Shown: piece after piece, positions 1 to 61,450 of the stretch | How the letters are laid out: every line of letters starts with the position of its first letter | Numbering within the stretch: position 1 is the first letter of the stretch | Source of the DNA: Malacoraja senta | Taxonomy: Eukaryota | NCBI GenBank assembly: GCA_038087875.1 | Contig: CM075989.1 | Location: 22,074,001 to 22,138,000, forward strand | Direction of reading: 5' to 3' | Length of the DNA stretch: 64,000 nucleotides | Program-made: the position numbers and the translations under genes | The notes under the pieces: generated by a model | The model's input: only the letters and a program-made list of their open reading frames with translations | What the model was told of the DNA's origin: nothing | The model's database searches: none

Positions 1-91
1 TCTCTCTCTCTCGTCCTCTCTCTTGCTCTCTTCTCTCTCTCTCTCTCTCTCCTCTCTCATCTCTCTCTCTCTCTCGTCTCCTCTCTCTTCT

Positions 92-181
<90 letters not shown>

Positions 182-5550: not shown

Positions 5551-5596
5551 TTTTGTTTTGTTTTTTTTTGCTGCCTGATAACACTCTGCCCGAGAT

Positions 5597-6008
5597 ATGG
5601 CAATGGTAGTTAGTACGTGGCGAGACCCGCAAGACGACGTGGCCGGAGCTCAAGTCACACAGCCACCTCCGCCTCAGCAAGGACCGCAACAGCCTTCCGG
5701 AGCACCCCTTACCCCGCAGACCCCAGGCCAACCTGGAGGTCCGGGCACGCCGGCCCAGTCCAACCAGCAGCCAAGCGAGAAACAGCAGCAGCATATCGAG
5801 TGTGTGGTGTGCGGGGACAAGTCAAGTGGCAAACATTACGGCCAGTTCACCTGCGAGGGCTGCAAGAGTTTCTTTAAAAGAAGTGTGCGCAGAAACTTGA
5901 CGTATACATGTCGTGCCAACAGGACCTGCCCAATAGACCAACACCATCGCAATCAGTGTCAGTACTGTCGCCTGAAAAAATGCCTGAAAGTCGGCATGAG
6001 ACGGGAAG
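5597..6008 (+). CDS. NR2F2: NR2F2 (COUP-TFII) coding exon 1: A/B region and two C4 zinc fingers
   Basis: [12 protein letters not shown]...[36 protein letters not shown]...CLKVGMRRE; donor G|GTATT at 6008/6009, phase 1. Confidence 0.97.
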
Positions 6009-6216
6009 GTATTGAGAATTAATTTATTTCAAATGTTTGAACCGCTCTTACCCGCCGACCTAGTTAAAAAAAAAAGAAGCCGAAATGTTTGATTCTATAA
6101 AGTTAAAATGGGCTACCATGCTTGCATGCCTCACTCAATTGCTACCGCCTGTCTGTGTAGTTTATGGTTGAGAAACTCAGTTAAGTGTTCTTGCAAATGT
6201 TATTTTTTGTTTTCAC

Positions 6217-6260
<44 letters not shown>

Positions 6261-6261
6261 C

Positions 6262-6293
<32 letters not shown>

Positions 6294-6367
6294 GGGGTGA
6301 GAGAGTGTGAGAGAGAGAGAGAGAAAGAGTGTGTGTGGGGAGAGAGAGAGAGAGAGAGAGAGAGAGT
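6217..6367. repeat. Compound (TG)n/(GA)n microsatellite in intron 1
   Basis: Seen directly. Confidence 0.95.
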
Positions 6368-6758
6368 GCTGAAAAATTATAAGTTGTAGAATAACCATAG
6401 AAAGCGTGTTTTGATTGTAATCTAATTTGATAAAATGTGCTAGGTCACACACGCAACCGCACGAGAAGAGAGGAGGGTGCTACTAATGCACCATGCAAGT
6501 TGGAGCAGTTTGCAAAGTCGAGATAGGAAAATAAATCAGCCATTGTTTTAAAATATGTAATCAGTTTTTACACGCGTTAGGGAAATGACATAGCAAAATT
6601 GCATTGCAGTGCTTGGCTTAGCATATGCAGTCGTGGTTTAAAATATGCACCATTGTGCTGCGGCATAGGTGAGATTTATTAAACAAAAAAAGCAGTGTCT
6701 GCGGCAGCTCTTGCATTTTTTGGGGGGTTGTATTGTGTGAAAAACTGTCTGAAAATGA

Positions 6759-7364
<606 letters not shown>

Positions 7365-8380
7365 TGATCTGTAATCAAAACAGCCATGATATCATATCAG
7401 AATGGAGATTCAGGCGAATATTCAGCGTCATTTTCCGTGCACTTAGAGTGCTGGCATACACTCTCCACATAATACCCCCTAATATTGAAATGGCTGGAAA
7501 AAAAGAGTCTTCATTTGCTGGAGCAAAATATAAGTTTAAAAATATGATGAAAACACTCAGTGAGCTTTTTAACCATTTGTAGTAATTCGTGTCATAAGCA
7601 ATTGCTGCATAATTCCCAACACATTGCATGGGAATGTACATTATTATCAAAAGAAAAATGCTGTGCGGTTGTAAATATTGAAGGAGAGTAAATTATTATA
7701 TATATATTTCATTTTTCGCGTGTTTTAGTTAGTCATTCCCATTTATATTGTGTTCAGAATTGCTGCACTTAAGTTATAATATTACCACAGCCGCTCATCT
7801 AGAGCTGGCATAATGCGTTCAAGGATTGATATCAGCAAACAGAAAAAAACAGTTTATGTGAGTAAGCGGTCCACAATCCCTTCCTTGTTGTGTCAGAGTG
7901 ATCTGGGGATCTAGAGGACTCCCTGGACCTTTTCAAGTGCAGGAGTCGTGACCCAAACTTCCTTTTTATATATATATATTCTTACTTCACACATAAAAAC
8001 GACGCTTTTCCAAAATGTCTTTTTTAACCAAACTAATCAAATGAAAGTGAACATCTAGTTAGAGAAAAACAATATTCAGGCCACTGAGCTTAAGTGAGGG
8101 TGACGTTTTGTGTGTTTGCTTTAAGTTAACACATGCCAGCTTTTATGAAGTAGTATTTTTCTTAGTCTTTTTTTATACTTGAATTACTAACCGACTTGGA
8201 AACACTTTTAAATTTTATGCGGTTTATTTTGTTTGTTCAGTCTACTTGATCCTACTCAACCAGGAGCAATCGATGACATTACCATTGCAGTTAATTTATT
8301 ACTATTTGTAAAATGTCAGGCCTGGTGTGCAACGAAGCAAGCTCACTGTTTTGTGAGCACTTTGGTGTTACACGTTGATG

Positions 8381-8382
<2 letters not shown>

Positions 8383-8429
<47 letters not shown>

Positions 8430-8444
8430 TAATATATATATATA

Positions 8445-8518
<74 letters not shown>
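8383..8518. repeat. Compound (TA)n/(TG)n/(CA)n microsatellite in intron 2
   Basis: Seen directly. Confidence 0.95.
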
Positions 8519-8782
8519 TGTAAATGTATACACTGCTCGCCAGTGCAGGCTAAATCTGGTTTAAGTTTACAAACGCCAAAAAGTATTATGTGAAATGTGG
8601 CTGTGAATGGTTGCTATATCTGTGCTTTGTGTTTTCTTTGATGCCTGTAATAATATGCGTCTGCTGGGCTGGGTTTCGGTATTGCAAGATGCAATGGCCA
8701 GGTCAGGTCATAACCTATGCTCTCTAATTAAAGGTCCCATGCTAGTGCGGGTGTCATATATTTAATCCTACACTTTTTCTAA

Positions 8783-9109
<327 letters not shown>

Positions 9110-11690
9110 ATAGGAAGGGGGAAAAAGGCAAGTGACATTATTTTGCAAATTCCTTCTGTAAAGAAGGAAATAAAAGGCTGTTACAAGTTTACCTATGTGA
9201 CGCACAAAAAAAATTGAAGAGTGGGAAGAATAAAAAAAAGGACTGTGGATTTCAATGACTGTACACGAACTTAAAAACAAACGCATTCAAAAACTCTTCT
9301 GTGTCGTTCAGAACAACTTGCTACTTATCATTTTGTAACAAAAGGAAATTAGTCTTTTATTTTGGTTTATTTTGTAAACTTTTGAGAAATATCGATATAA
9401 AGATAAGTGCATTTAAACAAGAATTTCAAAATTAGGAGGAAAGAAAAATGACATTTTTCCAAATTATTATAAATTGTCCGGTGTCTATGTATCTATAGCT
9501 GTTTTGTATTATTCCTGGTTTCAAACCAGTCTCCTCTGTGATTCTCTACTAATAATTTTGATATAACCATTGCTTCTTATCAGATACGGTGTATCACGTG
9601 AATATGTTCTGCAAGAATTAAAACGGAACCCGCTAAAATGTTAGATGAAAAGGTTTTTTTTAAAAAACAGAATCGCAACTTAATGCTGGAAGCGCACTTA
9701 TAGTGTTAACTCAAAATACGTTTAATTTGGGGGGGAAATGGACTGCAGACCTATATTAAATGATACACACTTGTAATTTAAAAATCCATTGTTGAAAACT
9801 CGTTAATATTGACATGTGGGGGGTGGGGGCGGGAGTACAATGTGGGTATATATCTGAAAGCAAAGATCCTTTATGTGTCCAAGACACAGTACAATATTTT
9901 TCATTAAATCTATGTGGCTCAATTTAGTTCCTGTTGCAGTATAGAATCGTACGAGGTTCCAAAACACGCCTGTTTGTATATTTCCCACCCATTTGTAACA
10001 ATGATAAACCCTTAGCCCTTTTAAAAGGAAAAACAACCACGATTTATTTTCTTGGATTCAGCATGGAACTCAATGTCGGCACTTACTATTTTACGTGTGG
10101 TTAATTAAGTATCTGGAGTTTACAGTCGTGTATACAAGCTGAAGGGTTTTTTTAAGTGCAAAATTTCTGTACTGTAAAAGTTATGATTGGATTGTTTGGT
10201 CAGTCTTGTGTGTTATATTCAAGAAAAAAATGAAAGTATTCGGAGATTATAATATTATTTGATATATGGAACTTTTCGCTGTTACAATTGTATGTTCACC
10301 CAAGGAAAAAAAAAAATCTCATTACAATGGTCAAACATCGCAGTTTACTGGAGTCATTACAATTCGTGCATTATTTGTCTTATTTACTCTATATACCTGT
10401 ATAGTTTACCGCCACAGTCTGTAGTAGTGGACAAACCACATGCTTTTTCAATGAAAGCATAAGTCGTGGACTCATGCTGCTCCTTGCCTTTAGGTCTTAG
10501 CGATGACACCCTAAAGATACAGTCAAATGGCCCCTGTACGACACGCCGTACCCCTTTCCTTTTTAAATTCAAAATGCCATGGGGATTTTGACCACCGACC
10601 CTTATTTAGTTCTAACTTAAGTGCCTGTGCAACCAATGTACATTAGACAGGTGTTAGGAAGCATGGATCATTATGTATGTTAATGGTCAGGGTTTTGTTT
10701 TGAAGCTTATTGTGTCTGAAGTTCACGCACATAACACACTTAAACAAGCAATTGCTACTAGGAACAGTGTTGATTGTAAATAAAATATATTAAATGAGAT
10801 TTATTCCAAAAAAAAAGTATGTCTGGAAAAATGTGGTTGCCAATTTTTGTTATTGGAAGATCTTCAAACGGAGGGTGATGTGGCTGACGTTTGATGTGTA
10901 GCACTACAAGTGAGCCTGATTTTATGTATATAAATATAAATTCATTTGAATTTTTATATATGGAAATAGACTGTGAGAGCATGGCCACAGGTCGCGAATA
11001 CATTTTACATTTGTTACATACATGTAAATGTTTGATTGTATAGAGGATATACATTTGGGCGAATGTTTGGCTTCAGTGCTCCCATATACCCTTGTTTAAA
11101 AGCAAAACACACACACATACACACACACATACACACACGCACACACACACACACACACACACATACACACACGCACACACACACACACACACACAAAAAG
11201 CAAAAATAATAACAGAGCGAGCTGGCTTGGGTTGGCCAAGCTATAGGTTCCAAGCTTTTTCCGGTAGTGCTGCAGTGTGAAAACTTGCATTTTGTCCCTT
11301 TTTTTAAAGAAAAAAAGAAAAAAAACCCTTTTTTTTGTGTGTGGCTTTCGGCCGCATTCTACATCATGTTATGGGTTGCACAAAAAAAGAATCATTTTGT
11401 ATAGTTGATGGAACAGTGATCTTTACCTGTTATAGAGACAGATATGGACCAGAAATGATGTATGATTGTCATTATTAACACGTTTGCAGCTGACCCGCGT
11501 TTTTTTTTACTTCAGGGTATTGCTACGCTGTTCTAACTTATAGATTGAGCCTTTTCAGATGTTTTTTATTGCAAGTACTATGTGTGTGGAGTTACTACGC
11601 CAGACTCCTGTTTGTGTTAGCTATTGTATACAGCGTTTTTGTTGTAAATTGTTCTTGGTATTAAATTATAATTTATGGCTTTGAAACAAA
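9110..11690 (+). other. NR2F2: Probable long AU-rich NR2F2 3'UTR (3' end uncertain)
   Basis: No interspersed repeats. Blocks at about 9320-9360, 9480-9570 and 10150-10240 resemble the recalled mammalian UTR. Candidate poly(A) signals AATAAA at 10779-10784 and ATTAAA at 11660-11665. Confidence 0.55.
11108..11195. repeat. (CA)n microsatellite
   Basis: Seen directly. Confidence 0.95.
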
Positions 11691-14174: not shown

Positions 14175-14374
14175 NNNNNNNNNNNNNNNNNNNNNNNNNN
14201 NNNNNNNNNNNNNNNNNNNNNNNNNNNNNNNNNNNNNNNNNNNNNNNNNNNNNNNNNNNNNNNNNNNNNNNNNNNNNNNNNNNNNNNNNNNNNNNNNNNN
14301 NNNNNNNNNNNNNNNNNNNNNNNNNNNNNNNNNNNNNNNNNNNNNNNNNNNNNNNNNNNNNNNNNNNNNNNNNN
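14175..14374. other. Assembly gap (200 N)
   Basis: Run of N with a round length, so probably a placeholder. Confidence 1.
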
Positions 14375-15607: not shown

Positions 15608-15708
15608 CAACACATCACCTATTCTTTTTCTCCACAGATGCTGCCTGTTACTCCACTATTTTTTGTCTATCTTTGGTATAAACTCGCATCTGCAGTTCCT
15701 TCCTGCAC
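15608..15708 (+). mobile_element. Penelope-like element 3' terminal fragment
   Basis: Matches the recurrent terminus ...agatgctgcctg...ttactcca...gtctatct...gcatctgcagttccttc. Confidence 0.7.
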
Positions 15709-15987
15709 GTTTGCTAAACATGTATTTACGTCACCTTCACAAGAAACATGTTGATGTTTAAGGATGCCACAATTTTATGGAAATAAATCATTGCGTAGTA
15801 AATATGCGATAGATACCTGCATAGGACCTGCATTCTTAGCAGTTGATGCCATTTAAATATATTAATTCCATTGAAGTTTGGAGTTGACACCACTGTGAGG
15901 TTGAAACCTCAAACAATGATGAAATGGACTACAGGAAGGGATAGGGAGTTTAGTAGCTTGATGTCAAGACAACAATCTATAAATGTT

Positions 15988-16109
15988 TAAGAAGGAACTG
16001 CAGATGCTGGAAAATCAAAGGTACACAAAAATGCTGGAGAAACTCAGCGGGTGCAGCAGCATCTATGGAGCGAAGGAAATAGGCAACGTTTCGGGCCGAA
16101 ACCCTTCTT
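15988..16109 (-). mobile_element. Penelope-like terminus (subfamily B) with 15-bp TSD
   Basis: Flanked by caatctataaatgtt at 15973-15987 and 16110-16124. Confidence 0.8.
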
Positions 16110-16149
16110 CAATCTATAAATGTTATCTGGGAACCAGGTTGGTTCACGC

Positions 16150-17419: not shown

Positions 17420-17715
17420 TAGAGTCATAAAGCGTGGAAACAGACCCTTCAGCCCAACTTGCCCACACAGCCTAACAGGTCCCATCTACACTAGTCCACC
17501 CTGCCTGCATTTGGCCCATATCCCTCTAAACCTGTCCTATCCATGTACCTGTCTAAATATTTCTGAAGCGTTGTGATAATACCTGCCTTCACTACCCCCT
17601 CCGGCAGCTCGTTCCATACACCCACCACCCTTTGTGTAAAAAAGTTATCCTTCAGGTTCCTATTAGATCTTTCCCTAGTCACCTTAAATCTACGTCCTCT
17701 GGTTCTTGATTCCTC
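17420..17715 (-). mobile_element. CR1-type LINE 3' fragment
   Basis: Minus ORF NFFTQRVVGVWNELPEGVVKAG...LDRYMDRTGLEGYG, the typical CR1 ORF2 C-terminus. Confidence 0.85.
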
Positions 17716-17716
17716 T

Positions 17717-18140
17717 AGATAGACACAAAATGCCGGAGTAACTCAGCGGGGCAGGCAGCATCTCTGGATAGAAGGAATGGGTGACGTTTCAGGTCGAGAC
17801 CCTTCTTTAGACTGAGAGTCAGGGGAGAGGGAACACACACAGAAATATGGAAGAGTATGGTGTGAAAACAAGAGATCCAAGAGGACGAAATTCAAGGAAC
17901 ATGTAGAATAGATCATTGTTAGCTAGCGGTAGGTAACAACGAGGTATACAAAGATAAAACGTAATCAGGAGGACAGTCAGACTGGTGGGAGAACTTGGAT
18001 GGGGAGGGATGGAGAGAGAGGAAAAGCAAGGGTTACGTAAAGTTAGAGAAGTCAATATTCATACCGCTGGGGTGTACGCTGCCCAAGTGAAACATGAGGT
18101 GCTGTTCCTCCAATGTGCATTGGGCCTCACTTTGACAGTG
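17717..18140 (-). mobile_element. Penelope-like element 3' end: GIY-YIG C-terminus, 3'UTR and hammerhead-motif terminus
   Basis: Minus strand reads HCQSEAQCTLEEQHLMFHLGSVHPSGMNIDFSNFT*, then a pyrimidine-rich UTR, then the recurrent terminal repeat. Confidence 0.8.
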
Positions 18141-20230: not shown

Positions 20231-21020
20231 CAACAGATTGACAGATGTGATACCAGAAGATCTGGAAATAGTACATCCATGCTTACCTTGTGGATAGACA
20301 AGGTTCTCATGTCACTTGTATAATGGAAAATCTCCGTCAGTTTCAATGGAGCTTCACCAACATGCAAGAACATGTTAGGTCATCCATTCAACAAAATTAT
20401 TAAAGCCGTTTGACTATAACCTTACCAACGGTAAATATATAGGCATGTGTAAGAAGGAGTGCCTGAAGAAGGGTCTCGACTCAAAACATCACCTATTCCT
20501 TTTCTCCAGAGATGCTGTCTGACCTGCTGAGTTACTCCAGCTTTTTTTCCTATCTTAAATATACAGGAGGTTTTGCAAGAACACTGGGATAATCACATTC
20601 ACTGAATGTTTTAAAGTGGATGATCCCACCACAAGATAAATGCCCATCAATCTATTGCAAGATTCATTGTGGCTAACCTTTCCAAGTCAACTGGTTATAA
20701 TGTTATTACTTTGTGGGAAGGATCCCTTTGATTATCATTGAGTAATAGTTGAAACTGTTGAGTGTAGTTACTCATTTGACTGGTTTGGAAACTCTCCAAA
20801 ATAGTCATCATGTTTTGTTACGATAATGTGATGGGTTCAATATTGCCCATGGCGATTGCTGGAAGCACTAGCAAGGCAAATCATATTCAAACGTGGAGAT
20901 ATCAACCAGGGCTGTATACCAATGTGGTAGCAATAGAGCTGCTCGTAAATTATTGAAATGCGTTATAGTAACAAAATTTACCGACCAGGTTAAAGGTCAA
21001 GTAGGAAAGAAAATCTTGTA

Positions 21021-21452
21021 TTGACACAAAATGTTGGAGTAACTCAACGGGTCTAGCAGCATCTCTGGAGAAAGTGGACAAGTGACGTTTCGGGTAGGGA
21101 CCCCTCTTCAAACTGATTGTAGTAGGGAGAGCGTTAACTTTAAAAGTCCATTAACTAGCTTCACATTCCACAACTATGTATCCCTCTTGATACTCACACC
21201 CGTCTCTATCCAACAATCTGCCTATCAGGGAACCTCCTCGCCAGAGATCATCTGTTGCCAACACTGATTTGTGTAGCTTGTTCTTATTTCCATTTTTTTC
21301 CTGCTCTCCCTTCTACAATCAGTCTGAAGAAGGGTCCCGACCCGGAATGTCACTTATAGATTGTATCCAGAGATGCTGCCTGACCCGCTGAGTTGCACCA
21401 CCATTTTGTGTCTATCTTTGGTGTAAACCAGCATCTGCAGTTCCTTTTAATG
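21021..21452. mobile_element. Inverted pair of Penelope-like termini with spacer
   Basis: 21021-21115 is the reverse complement of 21320-21415. Confidence 0.8.
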
Positions 21453-32905: not shown

Positions 32906-33549
32906 GAAAACATTTCTCATGGGACAAGGATGCAGCAACACACAAGGATGACGGCTTCCTCCTTCTCTCAAAGAGTCGCGGTCAATTAAATACATGCCTG
33001 GAGCGAGGTTCTGTGCTCTGGGTCACAAGGCAACCTACCAAACCTACAAGAAGCGATGCCTGACAGGAGGTCACTGCAATCGGCACATTCTCCTGCTCAT
33101 TGGAGATACAGAAAATAAATGCCATGTCCAGATGATATCTATTGGAATGATCAGCGCTTCATTTATTTTGCATCAAAAGAGCAGAGATCCTTGGAGAGCC
33201 TGTGTCCATCATGTGATGTGCCACTCATAACAAAATTCAGAGATGTTGTAGCAAGCTATTGAACTAATTGTTGTAGAGATTCATTCAGTCATGTGCTACA
33301 ATCAGCGCTGATGAACCCCGTAAAGCAAGATCTGAGAGATTTCAACGCCTCATCAGGGCTCCTCCAACTCATTATTAATGAGAAGTTCAAATGTGAGAGT
33401 ATGCTTGAAGGGAGAGTATGCTTGAAGGTATTGTTCAGAATGCTGGGTATCTCGATTATGACAGATTGGGAAAATCTGAGACTGTGAAAAACTGAGACTG
33501 TGAATATATTACTTACCAGGGAAACCAAAACACGATATAAGAGCAGAAA

Positions 33550-33665
33550 CAAAGAACTGCAGATGCTGGTTTATACCAAAGATAGACACAAAGTGGTGCA
33601 GTAACCCAGCGGGTCAGGCAGCATCTCTGGAGAAAACGGATAGGTGACGTTTCGGGTCGACACCC
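33550..33665 (-). mobile_element. Penelope-like terminus
   Basis: Recurrent terminal repeat including the tail. Confidence 0.75.
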
Positions 33666-33799
33666 TAGACTCTTCATTGATACACAAGTTTTTTAACCTT
33701 CTATCCAAAGGATCTCACCTCAAACCAGGTGGCCAGCCGAGAGATATTTAAAGCATTGGTTTGAACAAAAGCATAATTTTGTTAAATTATAAACACAAA

Positions 33800-34012
33800 G
33801 TGACACAAGGTCCTGGAGTAACTCAGAGGATCAGGCAGCATCTCTGGAGAACATGGATAGGTGATGTTTCAGGTCGAGACCCTTTGTCTGAAGAAGGGTC
33901 CCAATCTGAAATGTCACTTATCCATGATCTCCAGAGATGCTGCCTGATCTACTGAGTTACTCCAGCACTTTGTGCCCTTTTGTGTATTAACCAGCATCTG
34001 CTGTTTCTCCTG
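33800..34012. mobile_element. Palindromic Penelope-like terminus pair
   Basis: Arms meet at about 33885, next to ctgaagaagggtc. Confidence 0.8.
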
Positions 34013-34337: not shown

Positions 34338-34372
34338 GTGTCTGAAGAAGGGTTTCGGCCCGAAACGTTACC
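34338..34372 (+). ncRNA. Minimal type I hammerhead ribozyme motif (representative copy)
   Basis: CUGAnGA at 34342-34348, helix II with UUCG loop, GAAA, palindromic ACGU helix III, UH site. Confidence 0.65.
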
Positions 34373-34436
34373 TATTTCCTTCGCTCCATAGATGCTGCTG
34401 CACCCGCTGAGTTTCTCCAGCATTTTTGTGTACCTT
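34340..34436 (+). mobile_element. Penelope-like terminus (subfamily B) with intact hammerhead core
   Basis: CTGAAGA-A-GGGT-TTCG-GCCC-GAAACGTT. Confidence 0.8.
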
Positions 34437-34649
34437 GCAGATATAACAATTTGTAGTGCTTTGCCCGATAGTATGGTGCAAAGCAGATCAGAAGGGATTC
34501 AAAATGGACTGGGATATACTGTACACTGGCCTTTGGGATCCTATGGATGGTACTTTGAGAGAGCTGACACAAACATGGGGCAATGGCTTTTGTTTCCAAC
34601 ATGTTGTGCAAGGGTCGACACTTACTAGCTTTCCAAGAGCCATGGCTGA

Positions 34650-38944: not shown

Positions 38945-39061
38945 GTGTTTAAGAAGGAAATGCAGATGTCTGAAGAAGGGTTTCATCCCGAAACGTTGCC
39001 TATTTCCTTCGCTCCATAGATGCTGCTGCACCCGCTGAGTTTCTCCAGCCCTTTTGTCTAC
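38945..39061. mobile_element. Short inverted Penelope-like insertion with 15-bp TSD
   Basis: ctaagattacacttc at 38930-38944 and 39062-39076. Confidence 0.85.
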
Positions 39062-39102
39062 CTAAGATTACACTTCCATAGATATCTACAATGGGAGATT
39101 TG

Positions 39103-39290: not shown

Positions 39291-39959
39291 TTAACCTTTT
39301 TCTTTTACAGGGTTTGACTTATCAGAAGAAATTGTGCCCATTGTTTTGCACAGGAAGGAACAGCTACAAAGGAGAAGAGAGAGATGACATCTTTGTTTAT
39401 ATCTTTAATTGGATTGATTTAAATATATTTAATTGCTTTTGATTGATTTCCAATTTTCTAATGATCTGACTTTTTTTTTTAAAGCTCTTCATTATTTTGA
39501 AGATATTTTTACAGGAACATTTAATATAATTTCCCCCAGAGCACCTGGAGGAAACCCACATGGGCTCGGGGAGAACGTGCAAACTCCACACTAGACAGCA
39601 CCCGAGGTCAGGATCGAACCCATGTCTCCAGTTCTGTGAGACCAGCTGCACCCTAATTGACATCAATGTAGACATTAATAACAAAGGAAAAACAATCAAT
39701 TCTTGCCCTTTACTGGTGATTGCATTCTCATCTCATTTCTTTGCACAAGATATGTCCCATGTTGTAGGAGAAGATTTTGCTGGTGCCATTGCTACTATGC
39801 ATCTGCTATCATTATTCTACCATGTGGTAGAGTTTGTGGTCTGCTTGAATATAATTGAAAGGCAAGTGGCGAGAATTTATTCAACATTCAAGTGATCATC
39901 TTTGTTGTTACTGACAAGTACTTGTTGTGATGGGAGGTAACTCACTCCTTGCTCCATGT

Positions 39960-40173
39960 TAGACACAAAATGCTGGAGTAACTGAGCGGGACAGGTAGCA
40001 TCTCTGGAGAGGATTGGGTAATGTTTCGGGTCATTACCGTTCTTCTAAAGAAGGGTCTCAACCCGAAATGTCACCCTTTCCTTCTCTCCAGAGATGCTGT
40101 CGGTCCCGCTGAGTTACTCCAGCATTTTGCGTCTATCTTCGGTACAAACCAGCATCTGCCGCTCCTTCCTACA
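39960..40173. mobile_element. Palindromic Penelope-like terminus pair
   Basis: Inverted arms around about 40045; tail on the right arm only. Confidence 0.82.
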
Positions 40174-40279
40174 CAATCTCCCTTGGTAGCTTGACTCTTC
40201 CTCTGAGATAGAAGACCAACACGCATTTCACACTGTGGTCTAAAGTCAACATTGCCCATTGTCTCTTAATAAAAGATGA

Positions 40280-40944: not shown

Positions 40945-42600
40945 GGAAAACACACACCTCCAGATTCAGGGACAATTTCTTCCCAGCTGTTATCAAACAA
41001 CTGACCCATCCTCCCAACAACTAGAGAGCAGTCCTGAGCTACTATCTGCCTCATTGGAGACCCTCAGGCTATCTTTAATCGGTCTTCACTGGACTTTATC
41101 TTCCACTAAATGTTATTCCCTTTATCCTGCATTGGTACACATTTGGAAAGTGGTGAAATCATTGGACAAAGTCAGCATGGATTTACGAAAGGTAAATCGT
41201 GTCTGACGAATCTTATAGAATTTTTCGAGGATGTAACTAGTAGAGTGGATAGGGGAGAACCAGTGGATGTGTTGTATCTGGACTTTCAGAAGGCTTTCGA
41301 CAAGGTACCACATAAGAGATTAGGATACAAGCTTAAATCACACGGTATTGGGGGTTCAGTATTGATGTGGATAGAGAACTGGCTGGCAAACAGGAAGCAA
41401 AGAGTAGGAGTAAACGGGTCCTTTTCACAATGGCAGGCAGTGACTAGTGGGGTACCGCAAGGCTCAGTGCTGGGACCCCAGCTATTTACAATTTATATTA
41501 ATGATCTGGACAAGGGAATTGAAAGCAACATCTCCAAGTTTGCGGATGACACTAAGCTGGGGGGCAGTGTTAGCTGTGAGGAGGATGCTAGGAGACTGCA
41601 AGGTGACTTGGATAGGCTGGGGGAGTGGGCAAATGTTTGGCAGATGCAGTATAATGTGGATAAATGTGAGGTTATCCACTTTGGTGGCAAAAACGGGAAG
41701 GCAGACTATTATCTAAATGGTGGCCGATTAGGAAATGGGGAGGTGCAGCGAGACCTGGGTGTCATGGTACACCAGTCATTGAAAGTAGGCATGCAGGTGC
41801 AGCAGGCAGTGAAGAAAGCGAATGGTATGTTGGCCTTCATAGCAAGAGGATTTGAGTATAGGAGCAGGGAGGTTCTACTGCAGTTGTACAGGGTCTTGGT
41901 GAGACCACACCTGGAGTATTGCGTACAGTTTTGGTCTCCAAATCTGAGGAAGGACATTATAGCCATAGAGGGAGTGCAGAGAAGGTTCACCAGACTGATT
42001 CCTGGGATGTCAGGACTTTCATATGAAGAAAGACTGGATAGACTTGGCTTATACTCGCTAGAATTTAGGAGATTGAGAGGGGATCTTATAGAAACGTACA
42101 AAATTCTTATGGGGTTGGACAGGCTAGATGCAGGAAGATTGTTCCCGATGTTGGGGAAGTCCAGGACAAGGGGTCACAGCTTAAGGATAAGGGGGAAATC
42201 CTTTAAGACCGAGATGAGGAAAAACTTTTTCACACAGAGAGTGGTGAATCTCTGGAACTCTCTGCCACAGAGGGTAGTTGACGCCAGTTCATTGGCTATA
42301 TTTAAGAGGGAGTTAGATGTGGCCCTTGTGGCTAAAGGGATCAGGGGGTATGGAGAGAAGGCAGGTACGGGATACTGAGTTCGATGATCAGCCATGATCA
42401 TATTGAATGGCGGTGCAGGCTCGAAGGGCCGAATGGCCTACTCCTGCACCTATTTTCTATGTATCTATGTATGTATCTATGTACACTGTGGATGGCTCCT
42501 TTTTAATCATGTATAGTCTTTCCGCTGACTGATTAGCACACAACACAAGCTTTTCACTGTACTTCGGTACACGTGACAATAAACTAAACTAAACTAAATA
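40945..42600 (+). mobile_element. Rex1/Babar-type 3' fragment split by the CR1 insertion
   Basis: 40945-41140 and 42481-42600 rejoin to match the uninterrupted copies at about 23940 and 44845. Confidence 0.75.
41141..42480 (+). mobile_element. Young 5'-truncated CR1 LINE with open reverse transcriptase frame to 42378
   Basis: QHGFTKGKSCLTNL, YLDFQKAFDKVPH, GVPQGSVLGP, KFADDTKL and FFTQRVVNLWNSLP with no stops over about 410 codons; 3'UTR and short tandem tail. Confidence 0.95.
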
Positions 42601-42603
42601 ATA

Positions 42604-42831
42604 TGTTTAAGAAAGAACTGCAGATGCTGGAAAAATCGTAGGTAGACAAAAAATGCTGGAGAAACTCAGCGGGTGAGGCAGCATCTATGGTGAGAAGAAA
42701 TAGGCGACGTTTCAGGTCAAGGCCCTTCTTCAGACAGTCTTAAGAAGGGCCTCGACCCGAAACATTGCCTATTCCTTATCTCAACAGATGCTGGATCACC
42801 CGCTGAGTTTCTCCAGCATTTTTTGTCTACC
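42604..42831. mobile_element. Palindromic Penelope-like insertion with 15-bp TSD
   Basis: ctaaactaaataata at 42589-42603 and 42832-42846. Confidence 0.85.
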
Positions 42832-44844
42832 CTAAACTAAATAATAGATCAGTTTTCCAGTCTTATTGAACATATTCCAGTCTTATCCTGTTGGAATCTA
42901 TGGCTGTAAAATTTAATCTGTTACTTTATTTGAATTTTTTTCCTATCATTTAATTCCATTGTTTCCTACTTAATGCACCTAACTTTGGTTGTGAGTGAGA
43001 CATGATGTGGGCTGTGGCTACTCCCATGATTGTTTCATCGTTGCATGGATCAGAGATTGGAAATTACATAGCTTGAGACGATGACAAAATCCTTCTCCTC
43101 TTTCCAATGTTACAGCTTCCTTTCGAAATTACTTCCATATATTTATGTATGTCGAGTCGATTTGGGATTAACATGTTATCTGTAATAAACAAGTTGATAC
43201 CTGGCAAACGTTCATGCAATCGCTCCATATCATTTTCGGTATTAACTATAATCTCTCAATTGGCATGGAATAATACAAGTTAACAATTAATTTATTTACA
43301 GCAGCCAATAATTGAAGCTTGCCACATCTATCTTGAGATTTGGAGGTGCTGGAAGCTTCTTGACCTCCACCCTACTTGCTCAAACCTTCTTTCTCTCTCT
43401 GGAAGACAAGATGCACACTCTCACCTCAACTCCACTGTAACAGCTCTCCAGAGAGACCAACTTTCTTTCTCCTGTTCCTGACTGTCAGGACTGATTATCT
43501 TATTACACCATCTATCGGAGTAAATGGTTCCCTCCTGAGTCTTGCTGCCAGCACTGACCAGAGACAGTACCTCACCTAACTCCATGAAGCTACCTTAGTT
43601 GACTCTCTGGAGGGAATAAGCTTTCTTTCTCCTCATTAGCTCTGCTAAGCACTCTACCTAGTGGAAGTGATGTTTCCCCATTGTGAGCGGTGATTGACAA
43701 AAAAAAAAATGCTACTCTAGGTAACTCCCTTGAAGGGACAATTATTCCCCTCCTCATTAACCCTCTCCCACCTAGTGTTTCTTCATGCGATTACTGTCCC
43801 CGAATCTTCAAACGATGCGCTCAGAAGTACTGAGCAAATCAGTATTCCCAAAATGTCACGTTTTATGCACCCCACAGACATATTCTAATGATGAAATTGC
43901 CACATAATTGATTATAAATATTACAAGGCTAGAGCAACATGATGGCTTCTAGTCCTGCTTTGAAAAAATTATGAGATGGCCAATTTCACCCAGCCTAAGT
44001 GAGATGAGGTTAACCCATAGACGACAATATCTAGACAGAAATAATTAGCTGGCTTCAACTTTGGCACTGACTTAAGCCGATAATATTTGCTGCAGTACTA
44101 ATATTCTTCTATGTACCACATTACAAGTCTATGTTAGGATTTCAACTTTTGATGGATAATGTATAGTTAATTTTAATTAAAGTGGATGAAATAAGGCTTG
44201 GATGCTGCACCGAGGCTCAATCACACGAATACCAAAACCCTGACCCTGCATCGTTGTGCCATCCTCTGTGTTAAATCATTCAGCTTAAATCCGTTATAAT
44301 ACCTCTCTCCAACTCACCACAGGTTTCTGACTCGTCAAAAAGAAACCAATTCAGGATACTAGTAAAGGAGCATATTGTAACAATGCAATGAAGACAGGTT
44401 TTACAGTCTGTTTCAGTTGCTTAAATCCCATTTAATTAAAGATTAAGTGCCCACGTTTGATTTTTCGCCAAGTTGTGCTCTTCCTCACTGCCTCTCAGTT
44501 GGGGCACAGTGGCGTGCGTTCCAAGTGGCAACTCTTCACGTGCGAGCCCTGACATTGATTGGCATGCTATTTTGCCAAGAGGGCACCACAGCCGAGGACA
44601 CTCGTTTCCTCATTTTAAAAGCTGCATGTCGCTAATTAGCTGAGACTTACTTTGCATGCAACGTGCTGGAAAAAAAAATTAAAGTTCTAGCCACCGCATT
44701 GTCACCCAGGTGAAGTTTCATTTGTTTCACCCGTCAGTTACCGGAAAGGTCGCAGGGTAGCAGCCAACTGCAGAAACCTTGGCCAATTTGTACCTTCTGC
44801 AATCCAGGGGCACTGAAGAAATGGAATCCACCTGCTGCTGACAT

Positions 44845-57542: not shown

Positions 57543-58203
57543 TGTGTCGGAAGGAACGGCAGATGTCGGTTCACACCGAAGATAGACACAAAACGCTGGA
57601 GTAACTTCGCAGGACAGGCAGCATCTCTGGATCTTCTTCAGACTGAAGAAGGGTCTAGACCTGAAATGTCACCCATTCCTTCTATCCGGAGTGTGGCCTG
57701 GTGGCGCAGCGGTAGAGCTGCTGCCTTACAGCGCTTGCAGCCTGCGCCAGGGTACGATCCTGACTACAGGTGCTGTGTGTACAGAGTTTGTACGTTCTCT
57801 CCGTGACCGCGTGGGTTTTCTCCGAGATCTTCGGTTTCCTCCCACACTCCAAAGACGTACAGGTTTGTAGGTTAATTGGCTCTGTGCAAATTGTCCCTAG
57901 TGCGTGTAGGATGGTGTTAATGTGTGGGGATCGTTGGTCGGCGCGGACTCAGTGGATCGAAGGGCCCGTTTCTGTGCTGTATCTCTAAACTAAACTAATA
58001 TATTTCTAATTTACATAAATAACCAAAGTCCGCCTATTGAGACATTCATGTTCGTAAAGCATGGTGAAATCATCTCTCACAGTAGGGCCTGTTTCTGTGC
58101 TGCATCTCTCACAGTAGGGCCTCTTTCAGTTTATCTAAACTAAACTAAACTGAAAAGATGTCGCCTGTCCCGCTGAGTCACTCCAACATTTTGTGTCTAT
58201 CTT
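57543..58203. mobile_element. Penelope-like palindrome split by a later SINE insertion
   Basis: The right arm stops at about 57690 and resumes at about 58156 (agatgtcgcctgtcccgctgag). Confidence 0.75.
57695..57998 (+). mobile_element. HE1-type SINE
   Basis: A and B boxes, core and tail. Confidence 0.9.
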
Positions 58204-58817
58204 CATTTTATAAACGAAACTTTTTTTGAAAAAAATCATTTATTTTTGACATTCTGCAACATTCCTAAATGGTAGAAGCAAGACAGCTGATCTGTGAACC
58301 ACACACTATCAATCCACAGAAAGAAACTAATTTTTCAATTATCCAGCAGCAGTGTTACTCTACCCCGCTGTGAGATAAGACAGGGTTAGCAATTTTCAGT
58401 TTAATGATGGGATACCATTATTAAAGCAAAGTTCCCAATGAAGTGTTGTTTATTTTTAAAGCATTCATGATGATAATTATACCTATTACAATCTGTAAAG
58501 TTATAATGTGTGCAGAACATCACCGAGCTGCACCATTTCATGATATTACTTAAAGCAGGTACGGTTAATTCACACAGAAAAAAAACCCACAAAAGAAAAA
58601 CAATATTTGAACTCCTTGAAAAGTCCGTTCTAAAAATTTGAAATACTGCCAAACCGACGAACACTACCCAGTAGATTATTGTTTGTATTATCTTGGGCAA
58701 CGATATGATAAAATCTCATAAAACAATTATTTTAGCACAATTACATTCCCTTCATTCCTTCAACCTGAGTAGAAGCAAACATATATGCGATGGAGGTAGC
58801 TAGTTTTGATTTTATGT

Positions 58818-59050
58818 AAAGGAAGGAACTGCGGATGCTGGTTCACACCGAAGATGGACACAAAATGCTGGAGTAACTCAGCGGGACAGGCAGCATCTCT
58901 GGAGCGAAGGAATGGGTGACATTTCAGGTCAAGACCCTTCTTCAGATCTGAAGGTCTGAAGAAGGGTCTCGACCCAAAACGTTACCCATTCCTTCCATCC
59001 AGAGATGCTGCCTGTCCCGCTGAGTTACTCCAGCATTTTGTGTCCATCTT
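58818..59050. mobile_element. Palindromic Penelope-like insertion (subfamily A)
   Basis: Inverted arms of about 95 bp meeting at 58945-58955; imperfect flanking duplication tttg(a/c)ttttatgt. Confidence 0.88.
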
Positions 59051-59644
59051 TGCTTTTATGTGTCCCATAATAAATTGGATCAAATCAACAAGGCTGATTT
59101 ATCAATATAGATTACAAATCATTGGATCTTAACCAATTAATTGATCATTGGAGAATGACAACTTGTTTGCAATTTATACAAATCGCACATGGAGTCTTGA
59201 TTTTCTTCCAATGTGTCATTTTAGGCTGGAGGGTTTTGTGGACCTTAACATTGAACAAGGTCAGAGGTTACTTTCATATTTGACACGTACATTTCCGACA
59301 TACAGTCACAGGGCACTACACTTTCAATTTAATTGCCGCCACTATTGTATGACATGGATATGGTATTATTCCAGATTGAGGTCACTTCCAGACAATAATA
59401 CAAAACAATTGTTCTTATCATATCATGGTTTAATTCCATGAAGCTCTCAGATGTAACTAACTGCACCACCGTGGTGCTGAAACTTGTTGAAACTGGTGTT
59501 AAAATAGTTTGTGGCTGGTTTTAGCTTTGAGTCAAGAGTTTCAGTCAAGAGTTAATGAACCACATTCGAACTTCCGCAAAGTGTGGTACAGCAACGATGT
59601 TTACTTGAAACAATCGTTGAGTAAATATATTTTATGCTTCCACA

Positions 59645-61034: not shown

Positions 61035-61450
61035 GGTAAGAAGGAACTGCAGGTGTTGGTTAACACCAAAGACACAAAATGCTGGAGTAACTCAGCAGGT
61101 CCGGCAGCATCTCTGGAGAAAAGGAATAGAGGACATTTCGGGTCGAGACCATCTTCAGACTGAGAGTCAGGGGAAAGAGAAATGATAGATATAGAACAAA
61201 TGAATGAATGATATGCAAAAAGTAACAATGATCAAGGAAAAGTAGAGCCCACAATGCTCCATTGTTGGCTGTGAGGTAGGTAAACTGACCCTTCATCAGA
61301 CTGAAAGTTATTGAGGCGGAATTAAAGGTAAACATGAGGTATTTAAATTATTTACAGTGTAAAAAAATAAATACCTGTAATTTCCCCCTCCTTGACCCTC
61401 AGTCTGATGAAAGGTTTCGACCCAAAATGTCACCTATTCCATTTCTCCAT
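61035..61450 (-). mobile_element. Penelope-like 3' fragment with inverted arm
   Basis: Similar to 63015-63300; the inverted arm has CTGATGA at 61404-61410. Confidence 0.75.

Follow-up and report, generated by a model that had tools for sequence, protein, structure and literature searches.

Copies of a Penelope-like terminal repeat with a minimal hammerhead motif in the genome of the skate Malacoraja senta

The locus and its repeat copies

The window, i.e. the whole stretch of 64,000 nucleotides analysed here (Malacoraja senta, assembly GCA_038087875.1, contig CM075989.1, forward-strand positions 22,074,001 to 22,138,000), carries three coding exons of an NR2F (COUP-TF) nuclear receptor gene at 5582-9120 on the plus strand, an assembly gap of 200 N at 14175-14374, and at 41110-42375, again on the plus strand, an open reverse transcriptase (RT) frame of 422 residues (Pfam RVT_1, E 8e-25). 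The last is apparently a young LINE fragment, which we take to be CR1/L2-like. Among the non-simple 14-mers of the window, the 30 commonest all come from a single repeat, which is the pLTR (terminal repeat) of a Penelope-like element (PLE): its profile recovers 41 pieces against none in reversed decoys, all of them in the 48 kb that follow position 15,608 and none before it (Table 1). A hammerhead pattern matches 19 times in the window at up to three mismatches and not once in 100 shuffles, and the motif that an earlier note, made from the letters of the window, had placed at 34338..34372 is indeed found there. Every one of the eight plus-strand starts listed in that note is exact, and five of its six minus-strand copies lie within a few bases of where it had put them, while the sixth, at 61036-61163, is short of one base at the boundary of the core and helix II.

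With C3 of the core taken as position 0, the predicted cut falls between +27 (H17) and +28, and the plus-strand letters at 34340-34371 read GT / CTGAAGA / A / GGGT-TTCG-GCCC / GAAA / CGTT / AC. By hammerhead numbering this would place the cut at the boundary 34369/34370. Helix I, left unnamed in the note, has only two pairs, which across copies are GT/AC or GT/GC, and it is 2 bp long in 44 of 47 matches to a strict descriptor. The CTCG loop with a U-A closing pair, given as the consensus in the note, does not describe the focal copy, which has TTCG and a U-G closing pair; helix II is closed by U-A in six of the seven subfamily consensuses and by U-G in the youngest. At 61404 the CTGATGA called canonical in the note is present, but the motif is broken because G10.1 and G12 are lost. 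By our criteria the core and helices are intact in only two of the 41 pieces, with motifs at 34342 and 38970.

The proposed fit to the published minimal hammerhead consensus holds, including the base after A9, which is typical of PLE minimal hammerheads, and the palindromic helix III (PMC4209133). The Rfam check suggested alongside it returned nothing of the kind: none of 45 matches at E<=5 is a hammerhead. That the repeat resembles a hammerhead by chance would agree with this lack of a match to the Rfam models, but we consider it extremely improbable: a family-independent strict descriptor, run on the first 800 kb and on 10 shuffles, gave 43 matches, all in the pLTR repeat, against 0 in each shuffle, and the sense strand and pLTR position of the motif are those published for PLE hammerheads (PMC4209133).

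Table 1. Features of the window, with the focal copy and the parts of its motif
Feature	Position	Strand	Basis or remark
NR2F C4 zinc finger	frame 5582-6019	+	one of the three coding exons
NR2F ligand-binding domain	frame 6759-7364	+	another of the three coding exons
NR2F third exon	near 8905-9120	+	
Young copy with tail, C3 changed	15985..16115	-	pattern and profile
Older, longer copy, reaching back into apparently decayed GIY-YIG coding sequence	17701..18137	-	left end from profile; right end approximate
Decayed copy, motif 20463	20461..20565	+	profile
Two decayed copies on opposite strands, motifs 21111 (-) and 21324 (+)	21022..21448	.	profile
Truncated minus-strand copy and head-to-head inverted pair centred near 33888	33548..34011	.	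profile
5'-truncated pLTR of the young PLE subfamily, without 36-nt tail	34340..34437	+	97/98 bases as in the 3' pLTR of full-length element L017
Helix I 5' strand, 2 nt	34340..34341	+	partner 34370-34371
Core C3-A9, CTGAAGA	34342..34348	+	identical in 7/7 subfamily consensuses
Extra A between A9 and G10.1	34349..34349	+	window letters
Helix II, 3 G-C and 1 U-G, UUCG loop	34350..34361	+	window letters
GAAA core, loopless palindromic helix III (ACGT), U16.1, H17	34362..34369	+	window letters
Helix I 3' strand	34370..34371	+	window letters
Second intact-core copy, 3-bp helix II, motif at 38970	38967..39070	+	profile
Inverted pair, head-to-head	39954..40174	.	profile
Inverted pair, head-to-head	42605..42833	.	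profile
Inverted pair, motif 57643	57544..57691	.	profile
Head-to-head inverted pair, motifs 58945 (-) and 58956 (+)	58816..59055	.	profile
Two decayed copies, including 61404	61036..61450	.	profile

The host element and the number of its copies

Upstream of near-identical copies elsewhere in the genome the sequence passes into a frame that carries RT and GIY-YIG motifs. With 233 residues from this frame as the query, 31,109 candidates came up, and all 150 that were scored are 98-100% identical. Among 20 loci fetched from the frame matches, picked mainly for long open frames, seven retain both pLTRs, with an RT and GIY-YIG frame of 1,213-1,302 residues between same-strand motifs that are spaced 3,918-4,152 bases apart. 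In the full-length elements the sense-strand motif lies 116 nt after the stop codon, beyond a tract that is 84% pyrimidine, and the first ATG of the next unit follows 163 nt downstream of the start of the motif. The single frame joins RT (YIDD), a C-X4-C-X2-C linker and, at the C terminus, a GIY-YIG domain (YIGET), as in EN+ PLEs. It has 615 homologues at E<=1e-30, the best 54% identical, and the Pfam RT and GIY-YIG matches on a 460-residue partial frame stay under the curated cut-offs. In the full-length element at L017:4131-7883 some 350 residues inside the protein form a proline-rich region that contains tandem repeats; 5' extents near -2,765 reflect alignment failures in the proline-rich repeats and are not true ends. 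The upstream pLTRs of full-length copies reach from -28 to -2,436, i.e. they form partial tandems of variable 5' extent. Over their last 1.6 kb, 19 loci share 98.6-99.9% identity with L017, from which we infer a recent expansion of the family.

To describe the repeat genome-wide, a profile seeded with 277 copies was run on 160 evenly spaced 10-kb stretches (1,596,435 non-N bases), drawn from the 22 largest contigs only. It found 730 pLTR pieces and none in reversed decoys: 430 solo, 196 inverted, 61 long, 28 tandem and 15 at a locus edge. Their 3' ends fall into two classes ~35 nt apart, at +89..104 (256/730) and +120..128 (280/730), and target duplications of at least 8 nt flank 53 of the 430 solo copies, against 1.6% of shuffled pairs. 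An optional 36-nt tail and inverted 5' copies are present, as in EN+ PLEs, and target duplications, inverted copies, partial tandems and a short tail are described as PLE hallmarks (PMC8557442). The earlier assignment of the repeat to a PLE terminus is thus borne out by the RT and GIY-YIG frames upstream and by the same-strand motifs that flank the frame, and we regard it as close to certain that the repeat is a PLE pLTR with a minimal hammerhead motif.

Two further structures were noted in these sequences. A predicted stem of +47..+56 with +103..+111, seen in four of seven consensus folds and in the L017 pLTR, would span the first 3' end site and is a candidate protein-binding or priming structure. 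A composite repeat, in which a CT-rich tract comes after two decayed pLTRs in inverted orientation, occurs in six of 10 control loci (L217, L219-L221, L223, L224).

Extrapolated from the sample, the genome holds ~890,000 pLTR pieces (780,000-1,000,000), of which 405,000 would span the motif, 178,000 have intact core letters and 82,000 (63,000-101,000) have both core and helices intact. Exact counts over the genome are 45,118 strict motifs and 19,101 motifs of the young variant. The very large copy number anticipated in the earlier note is therefore confirmed, both by the 45,118 exact motifs and by some 0.9 million pieces. Its further statement that most copies had decayed by CpG mutation needs qualification. 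In the alignment 397 of the 730 pieces do not span -2..+29, mainly through 5' truncation. Among the 333 that do, 266 have a broken motif; a CpG-type change is present in 179 of these, but CpG change alone breaks just 53. Overall 254 of 857 changes are CpG-type, and they fall on four of the 22 scored positions. CpG decay is the leading single cause of damage but not the cause of most losses.

Conservation, folding and the 5' ends of copies

Seven subfamily clusters were built from downstream positions only. All 11 core letters, and H17 as C or U, are kept in each of the seven consensuses, while 33 of 96 flank positions vary. The excess of core over flank conservation that the note's reading called for is thus found (0/11 against 33/96 positions variable, p=0.013), with a p-value that is soft because the subfamilies are near relatives of one another and long stretches of the flanks do not vary either. 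Changes within the motif affect loop II, H17 (C/U) or convert U-A to U-G in helix II and helix I; one further change is CpG decay in the oldest cluster, and the ACGT palindrome stands in six of the seven consensuses. Contigs of other organisms (four runs) show the same variants and no other core letter at >=15%. Two-sided base-pair covariation was not found among the seven consensuses, where the only pair changes are from U-A to U-G, on one side; in the 2-bp helix I the change is a one-sided wobble, and the published range of helix I includes 2 bp (PMC4209133).

Folding predictions are unfavourable to the hammerhead. The predicted pairing probability is 0-0.35 for helix II and at most 0.01 for helix I; pairing of helix II is low because the core purines pair downstream or upstream, and in the young family because GAAA lies hidden inside a 6-bp hairpin. 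The prediction gives a ground state other than the hammerhead fold, and the best predicted dimer is a different duplex. We also considered a conserved alternative hairpin that would silence the ribozyme in all subfamilies and found no support for it, as the competing stems differ between clusters. Published assays found no activity for a monomer and low activity for dimers (PMC4209133), and the hammerhead of a lizard PLE was active only with the protein of the element and dispensable for insertion in vitro (PMC11167929). We infer that weak, protein-assisted cleavage as a dimer would fit the conservation, the predicted folding and these assays.

The 5' ends of the copies bear on the RNA that was copied. 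Of the 39 ends counted in the young family, where one edge copy was left out, 26 lie at -8..+11 and one at +27..30; of the 26, 14 fall at -8..+1 and 12 inside the core at +2..+11, seven of these 12 being inverted. None of the nine copies that pass -8 ends at -30..-9, and none ends before -45. A set of starts across subfamilies, comprising the 394 of 501 anchored copies with a definable start and including the window and L001-L030, has ~25 starts per base at -5..-1. This unbiased sample has no excess of starts at the cut site, with 4 at +28 where neighbouring positions average 3.4 (p=0.44). Genome-wide, the 19,101 young motifs fall to 13,305 with AGT in front, 11,325 with CAGT and 6,736 that reach -11, the last drop being partly due to a sister subfamily; in contigs of other organisms depth rises roughly 25- to 100-fold at the same 5' boundary. 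Copies begin mostly at the 5' edge of the motif and not at the cut site, and the template was therefore probably uncut RNA in most cases. Longer RNAs also exist, because the upstream pLTRs of full-length copies reach from -28 to beyond -2,400.

The pile-up of 5' ends is spread over ~15 bases, and the sequence TCAGT before the core resembles, in our estimation, an initiator. An internal Inr/DPE promoter is reported for Drosophila Penelope (PMC2377424). Among 1,980 cases with a base other than C before AGT, that base is G in 810, whereas its context predicts 547-706; in sample copies G precedes AGT in 18 of 37 (a post hoc count), against one of 58 long copies. A copied cap would account for this excess, which is modest and present before -2 too, and which target preference could also produce.

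On these grounds we consider it likely that the repeat is the pLTR of an EN+ PLE with a match to the minimal hammerhead, and that the window copies are short insertions made from uncut RNA. The reverse transcriptase of the element would prime at one of two internal sites ~95 and 128 nt downstream and run off the 5' end of the RNA, likely 2-6 nt before the core. In naked RNA the ribozyme is predicted to be folded off; any cutting would be weak and carried out by dimers joined through ACGU, probably with aid from the element protein, and the solo copies are likely inert by-products. A precedent is presented by the lizard PLE, for which internal priming, uncut RNA as the main template and a protein-assisted ribozyme are described (PMC11167929).

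A serious rival, which we hold possible, keeps the same element but has the 5' pile-up arise from stalling or template switching of the reverse transcriptase at RNA structure: the core purine run would pair with the upstream pyrimidine tract or with a downstream CCUUC, and short palindromes would favour fold-back. The predicted hairpins use exactly these bases, and both the 12 starts inside the core, with their seven inverted copies, and arrays with a +40 to +7 junction in two of 160 random loci agree with it; against it, more ends (the 14 at -8..+1) lie beyond the predicted stems, G is in excess at -4, and none of the nine copies that pass -8 stops before -45. Splicing could also set the boundary if the pyrimidine tract and CAG before the core acted as a splice acceptor. 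The 42 bases before AG are 95% pyrimidine, and an intron of D. virilis Penelope ends at helix I (PMC4209133), but solo copies abut target duplications without a common upstream exon. We regard a role of splicing as quite improbable. No GT-AG joint ending at the core is among the joints listed for the contigs of the sequencing runs.

Arrays at the predicted cut site and the closest known systems

In three tandem arrays the start coincides exactly with the predicted cut site; all three came from a search pattern that selected for +28. At L200:756-2293 (G000:C1 near 27.817 Mb) there are 11.1 identical 138-bp units without a core, each with +28 as its first base and the G of the start codon as its last; the insertion starts in the middle of a unit and stops at the usual tail site, the outcome expected if a circle had been copied round. 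L206 and L207 are unlinked arrays of a common 61-bp unit, +28..+88, with the same blunt junction, and one array of this unit lies within a 14-bp target duplication. The same search also gave a solo copy with a target duplication. The scorable array junctions have no donor-side homology, and all arrays inspected lack all or part of the core. In L206 adjacent units share a variant, which suggests duplication at the DNA level.

The pattern counts are 311 at +28, 251 at +30 and 763 at +26. By eye ~8 of 12 from the +28 list are true junctions against one of 10 from the +30 list (p=0.011), or 7 of 12 against one of six once a doubtful case and duplicates are removed (p=0.15). No short-period array is found among the first 100 matches listed for +30 or the first 100 for +26, against three for +28, which is a thin margin. 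Arrays with the +40 to +7 junction are far commoner, because they are present in two of 160 random loci: arrays of a 34-bp unit (+7..+40) lie at L065:5591-5729 and L070:8230-8434, with related junctions in L099 and L101. On their sequence, the three arrays that start at the predicted cut site may be a weak hint of a trace of cleavage.

A wider reading, speculative and in our judgement unlikely, is that the genome preserves, as fossils would, the two RNA states of the PLE, a capped uncut transcript behind most copies and a self-cleaved RNA behind a small class. The transcript would then start on helix I, so that promoter and ribozyme would overlap, and the cleaved RNA would be circularised, or repeatedly re-primed, from the cut site to yield the tandem arrays. 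If true, this would amount to evidence from the genome for germ-line cutting by the minimal hammerhead of a PLE, a question that PMC4209133 and PMC11167929 do not settle.

The opposite possibility is a hammerhead-derived relic, non-cutting in this lineage and kept as a promoter or protein-binding sequence. The 2-bp helix I, the lack of two-sided covariation, the disfavoured fold and the absence of a start excess at the cut site (4 against 3.4, p=0.44; 311 against 251 and 763) speak for it. Against it, the 11 core letters and H17 are retained while loop II varies, minimal hammerheads with a 2-bp helix I appear in Fig. S3 of PMC4209133, the lizard hammerhead was inactive alone yet cut with protein (PMC11167929), and three arrays begin at the cut site. 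We find it doubtful, and keep to the preferred reading of short insertions from uncut RNA with a ribozyme that would cut weakly.

The pairing of PLEs with minimal hammerheads has been in print since 2014, and the motif itself is ordinary. The value of the case lies in its scale and youth (~19,000 identical young motifs, frames 98.6-99.9% alike): so many young copies allow the start and stop points of reverse transcription to be counted exactly, and two points become testable, namely where PLE transcripts start and whether the ribozyme cuts in vivo. A vertebrate PLE that is intact and has expanded recently can also serve in vitro studies of the kind carried out on the lizard element.

Among known systems the closest are the PLE minimal hammerheads of Cervera and De la Pena (2014, PMC4209133), which share CUGANGA with an extra base, G10.1-C11.1, GAAA, the loopless palindrome and the UH site; the skate motif matches their Fig. 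S3. As there, the motif lies in both pLTRs on the sense strand, copies are mostly solo and truncated, and one inverted neighbour is common; as a difference, helix II (4 bp) and helix I (2 bp) lie near the lower limit of length here. No shark, skate or chimaera is found in the examined rows of Fig. S3 or by a term search of that file. We found no open-literature report of the motif in a cartilaginous fish, although subscription papers, Repbase/Dfam and supplements may hold the family, and no literature report of cut-site arrays in PLEs. The 45,118 exact motifs compare with ~4,000 minimal hammerheads in coelacanth and ~9,000 in Xenopus (PMC4209133) and with 126,247 type I motifs in axolotl (PMC7229834), which makes for a high density but not a proven record, because motif descriptors differ between studies.

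Non-LTR retrozymes likewise combine type I hammerheads with high copy number; they derive from PLE pLTRs and are reported in one chondrichthyan genome (PMC7229834; bioRxiv 10.64898/2026.07.22.740005). As described there, retrozymes consist of tandem units that each hold a whole hammerhead, whereas the window copies are solo or inverted, only 28 of the 730 sampled pieces are tandem, and the cut-site arrays are without a core. In its protein the element resembles EN+ PLEs of the Neptune/Nematis type (Craig et al., 2021, PMC8557442), with a C-terminal GIY-YIG and a CX2-5CxxC linker, and it shares with them partial tandems, an inverted 5' copy and a tail of 30-40 bp. The skate C-X4-C-X2-C fits the Neptune CX2-5CxxC, a linker common to Nematis and so not diagnostic alone. 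The skate unit is ~4.0 kb and its frame ~1,240 residues, against 700-1,000 in most of the homologues found. Finally, like PAc, the Poseidon element of Anolis carolinensis (Frangieh et al., 2024, PMC11167929), the skate element has two 3' ends ~36 nt apart, probably uncut RNA as the main template and no footprint of ends at the cut site; whereas the PAc ORF starts inside the hammerhead, that of the skate PLE starts 163 nt after C3, and its protein differs from that of PAc in a Zn-finger-like linker and a long proline-rich repeat region.
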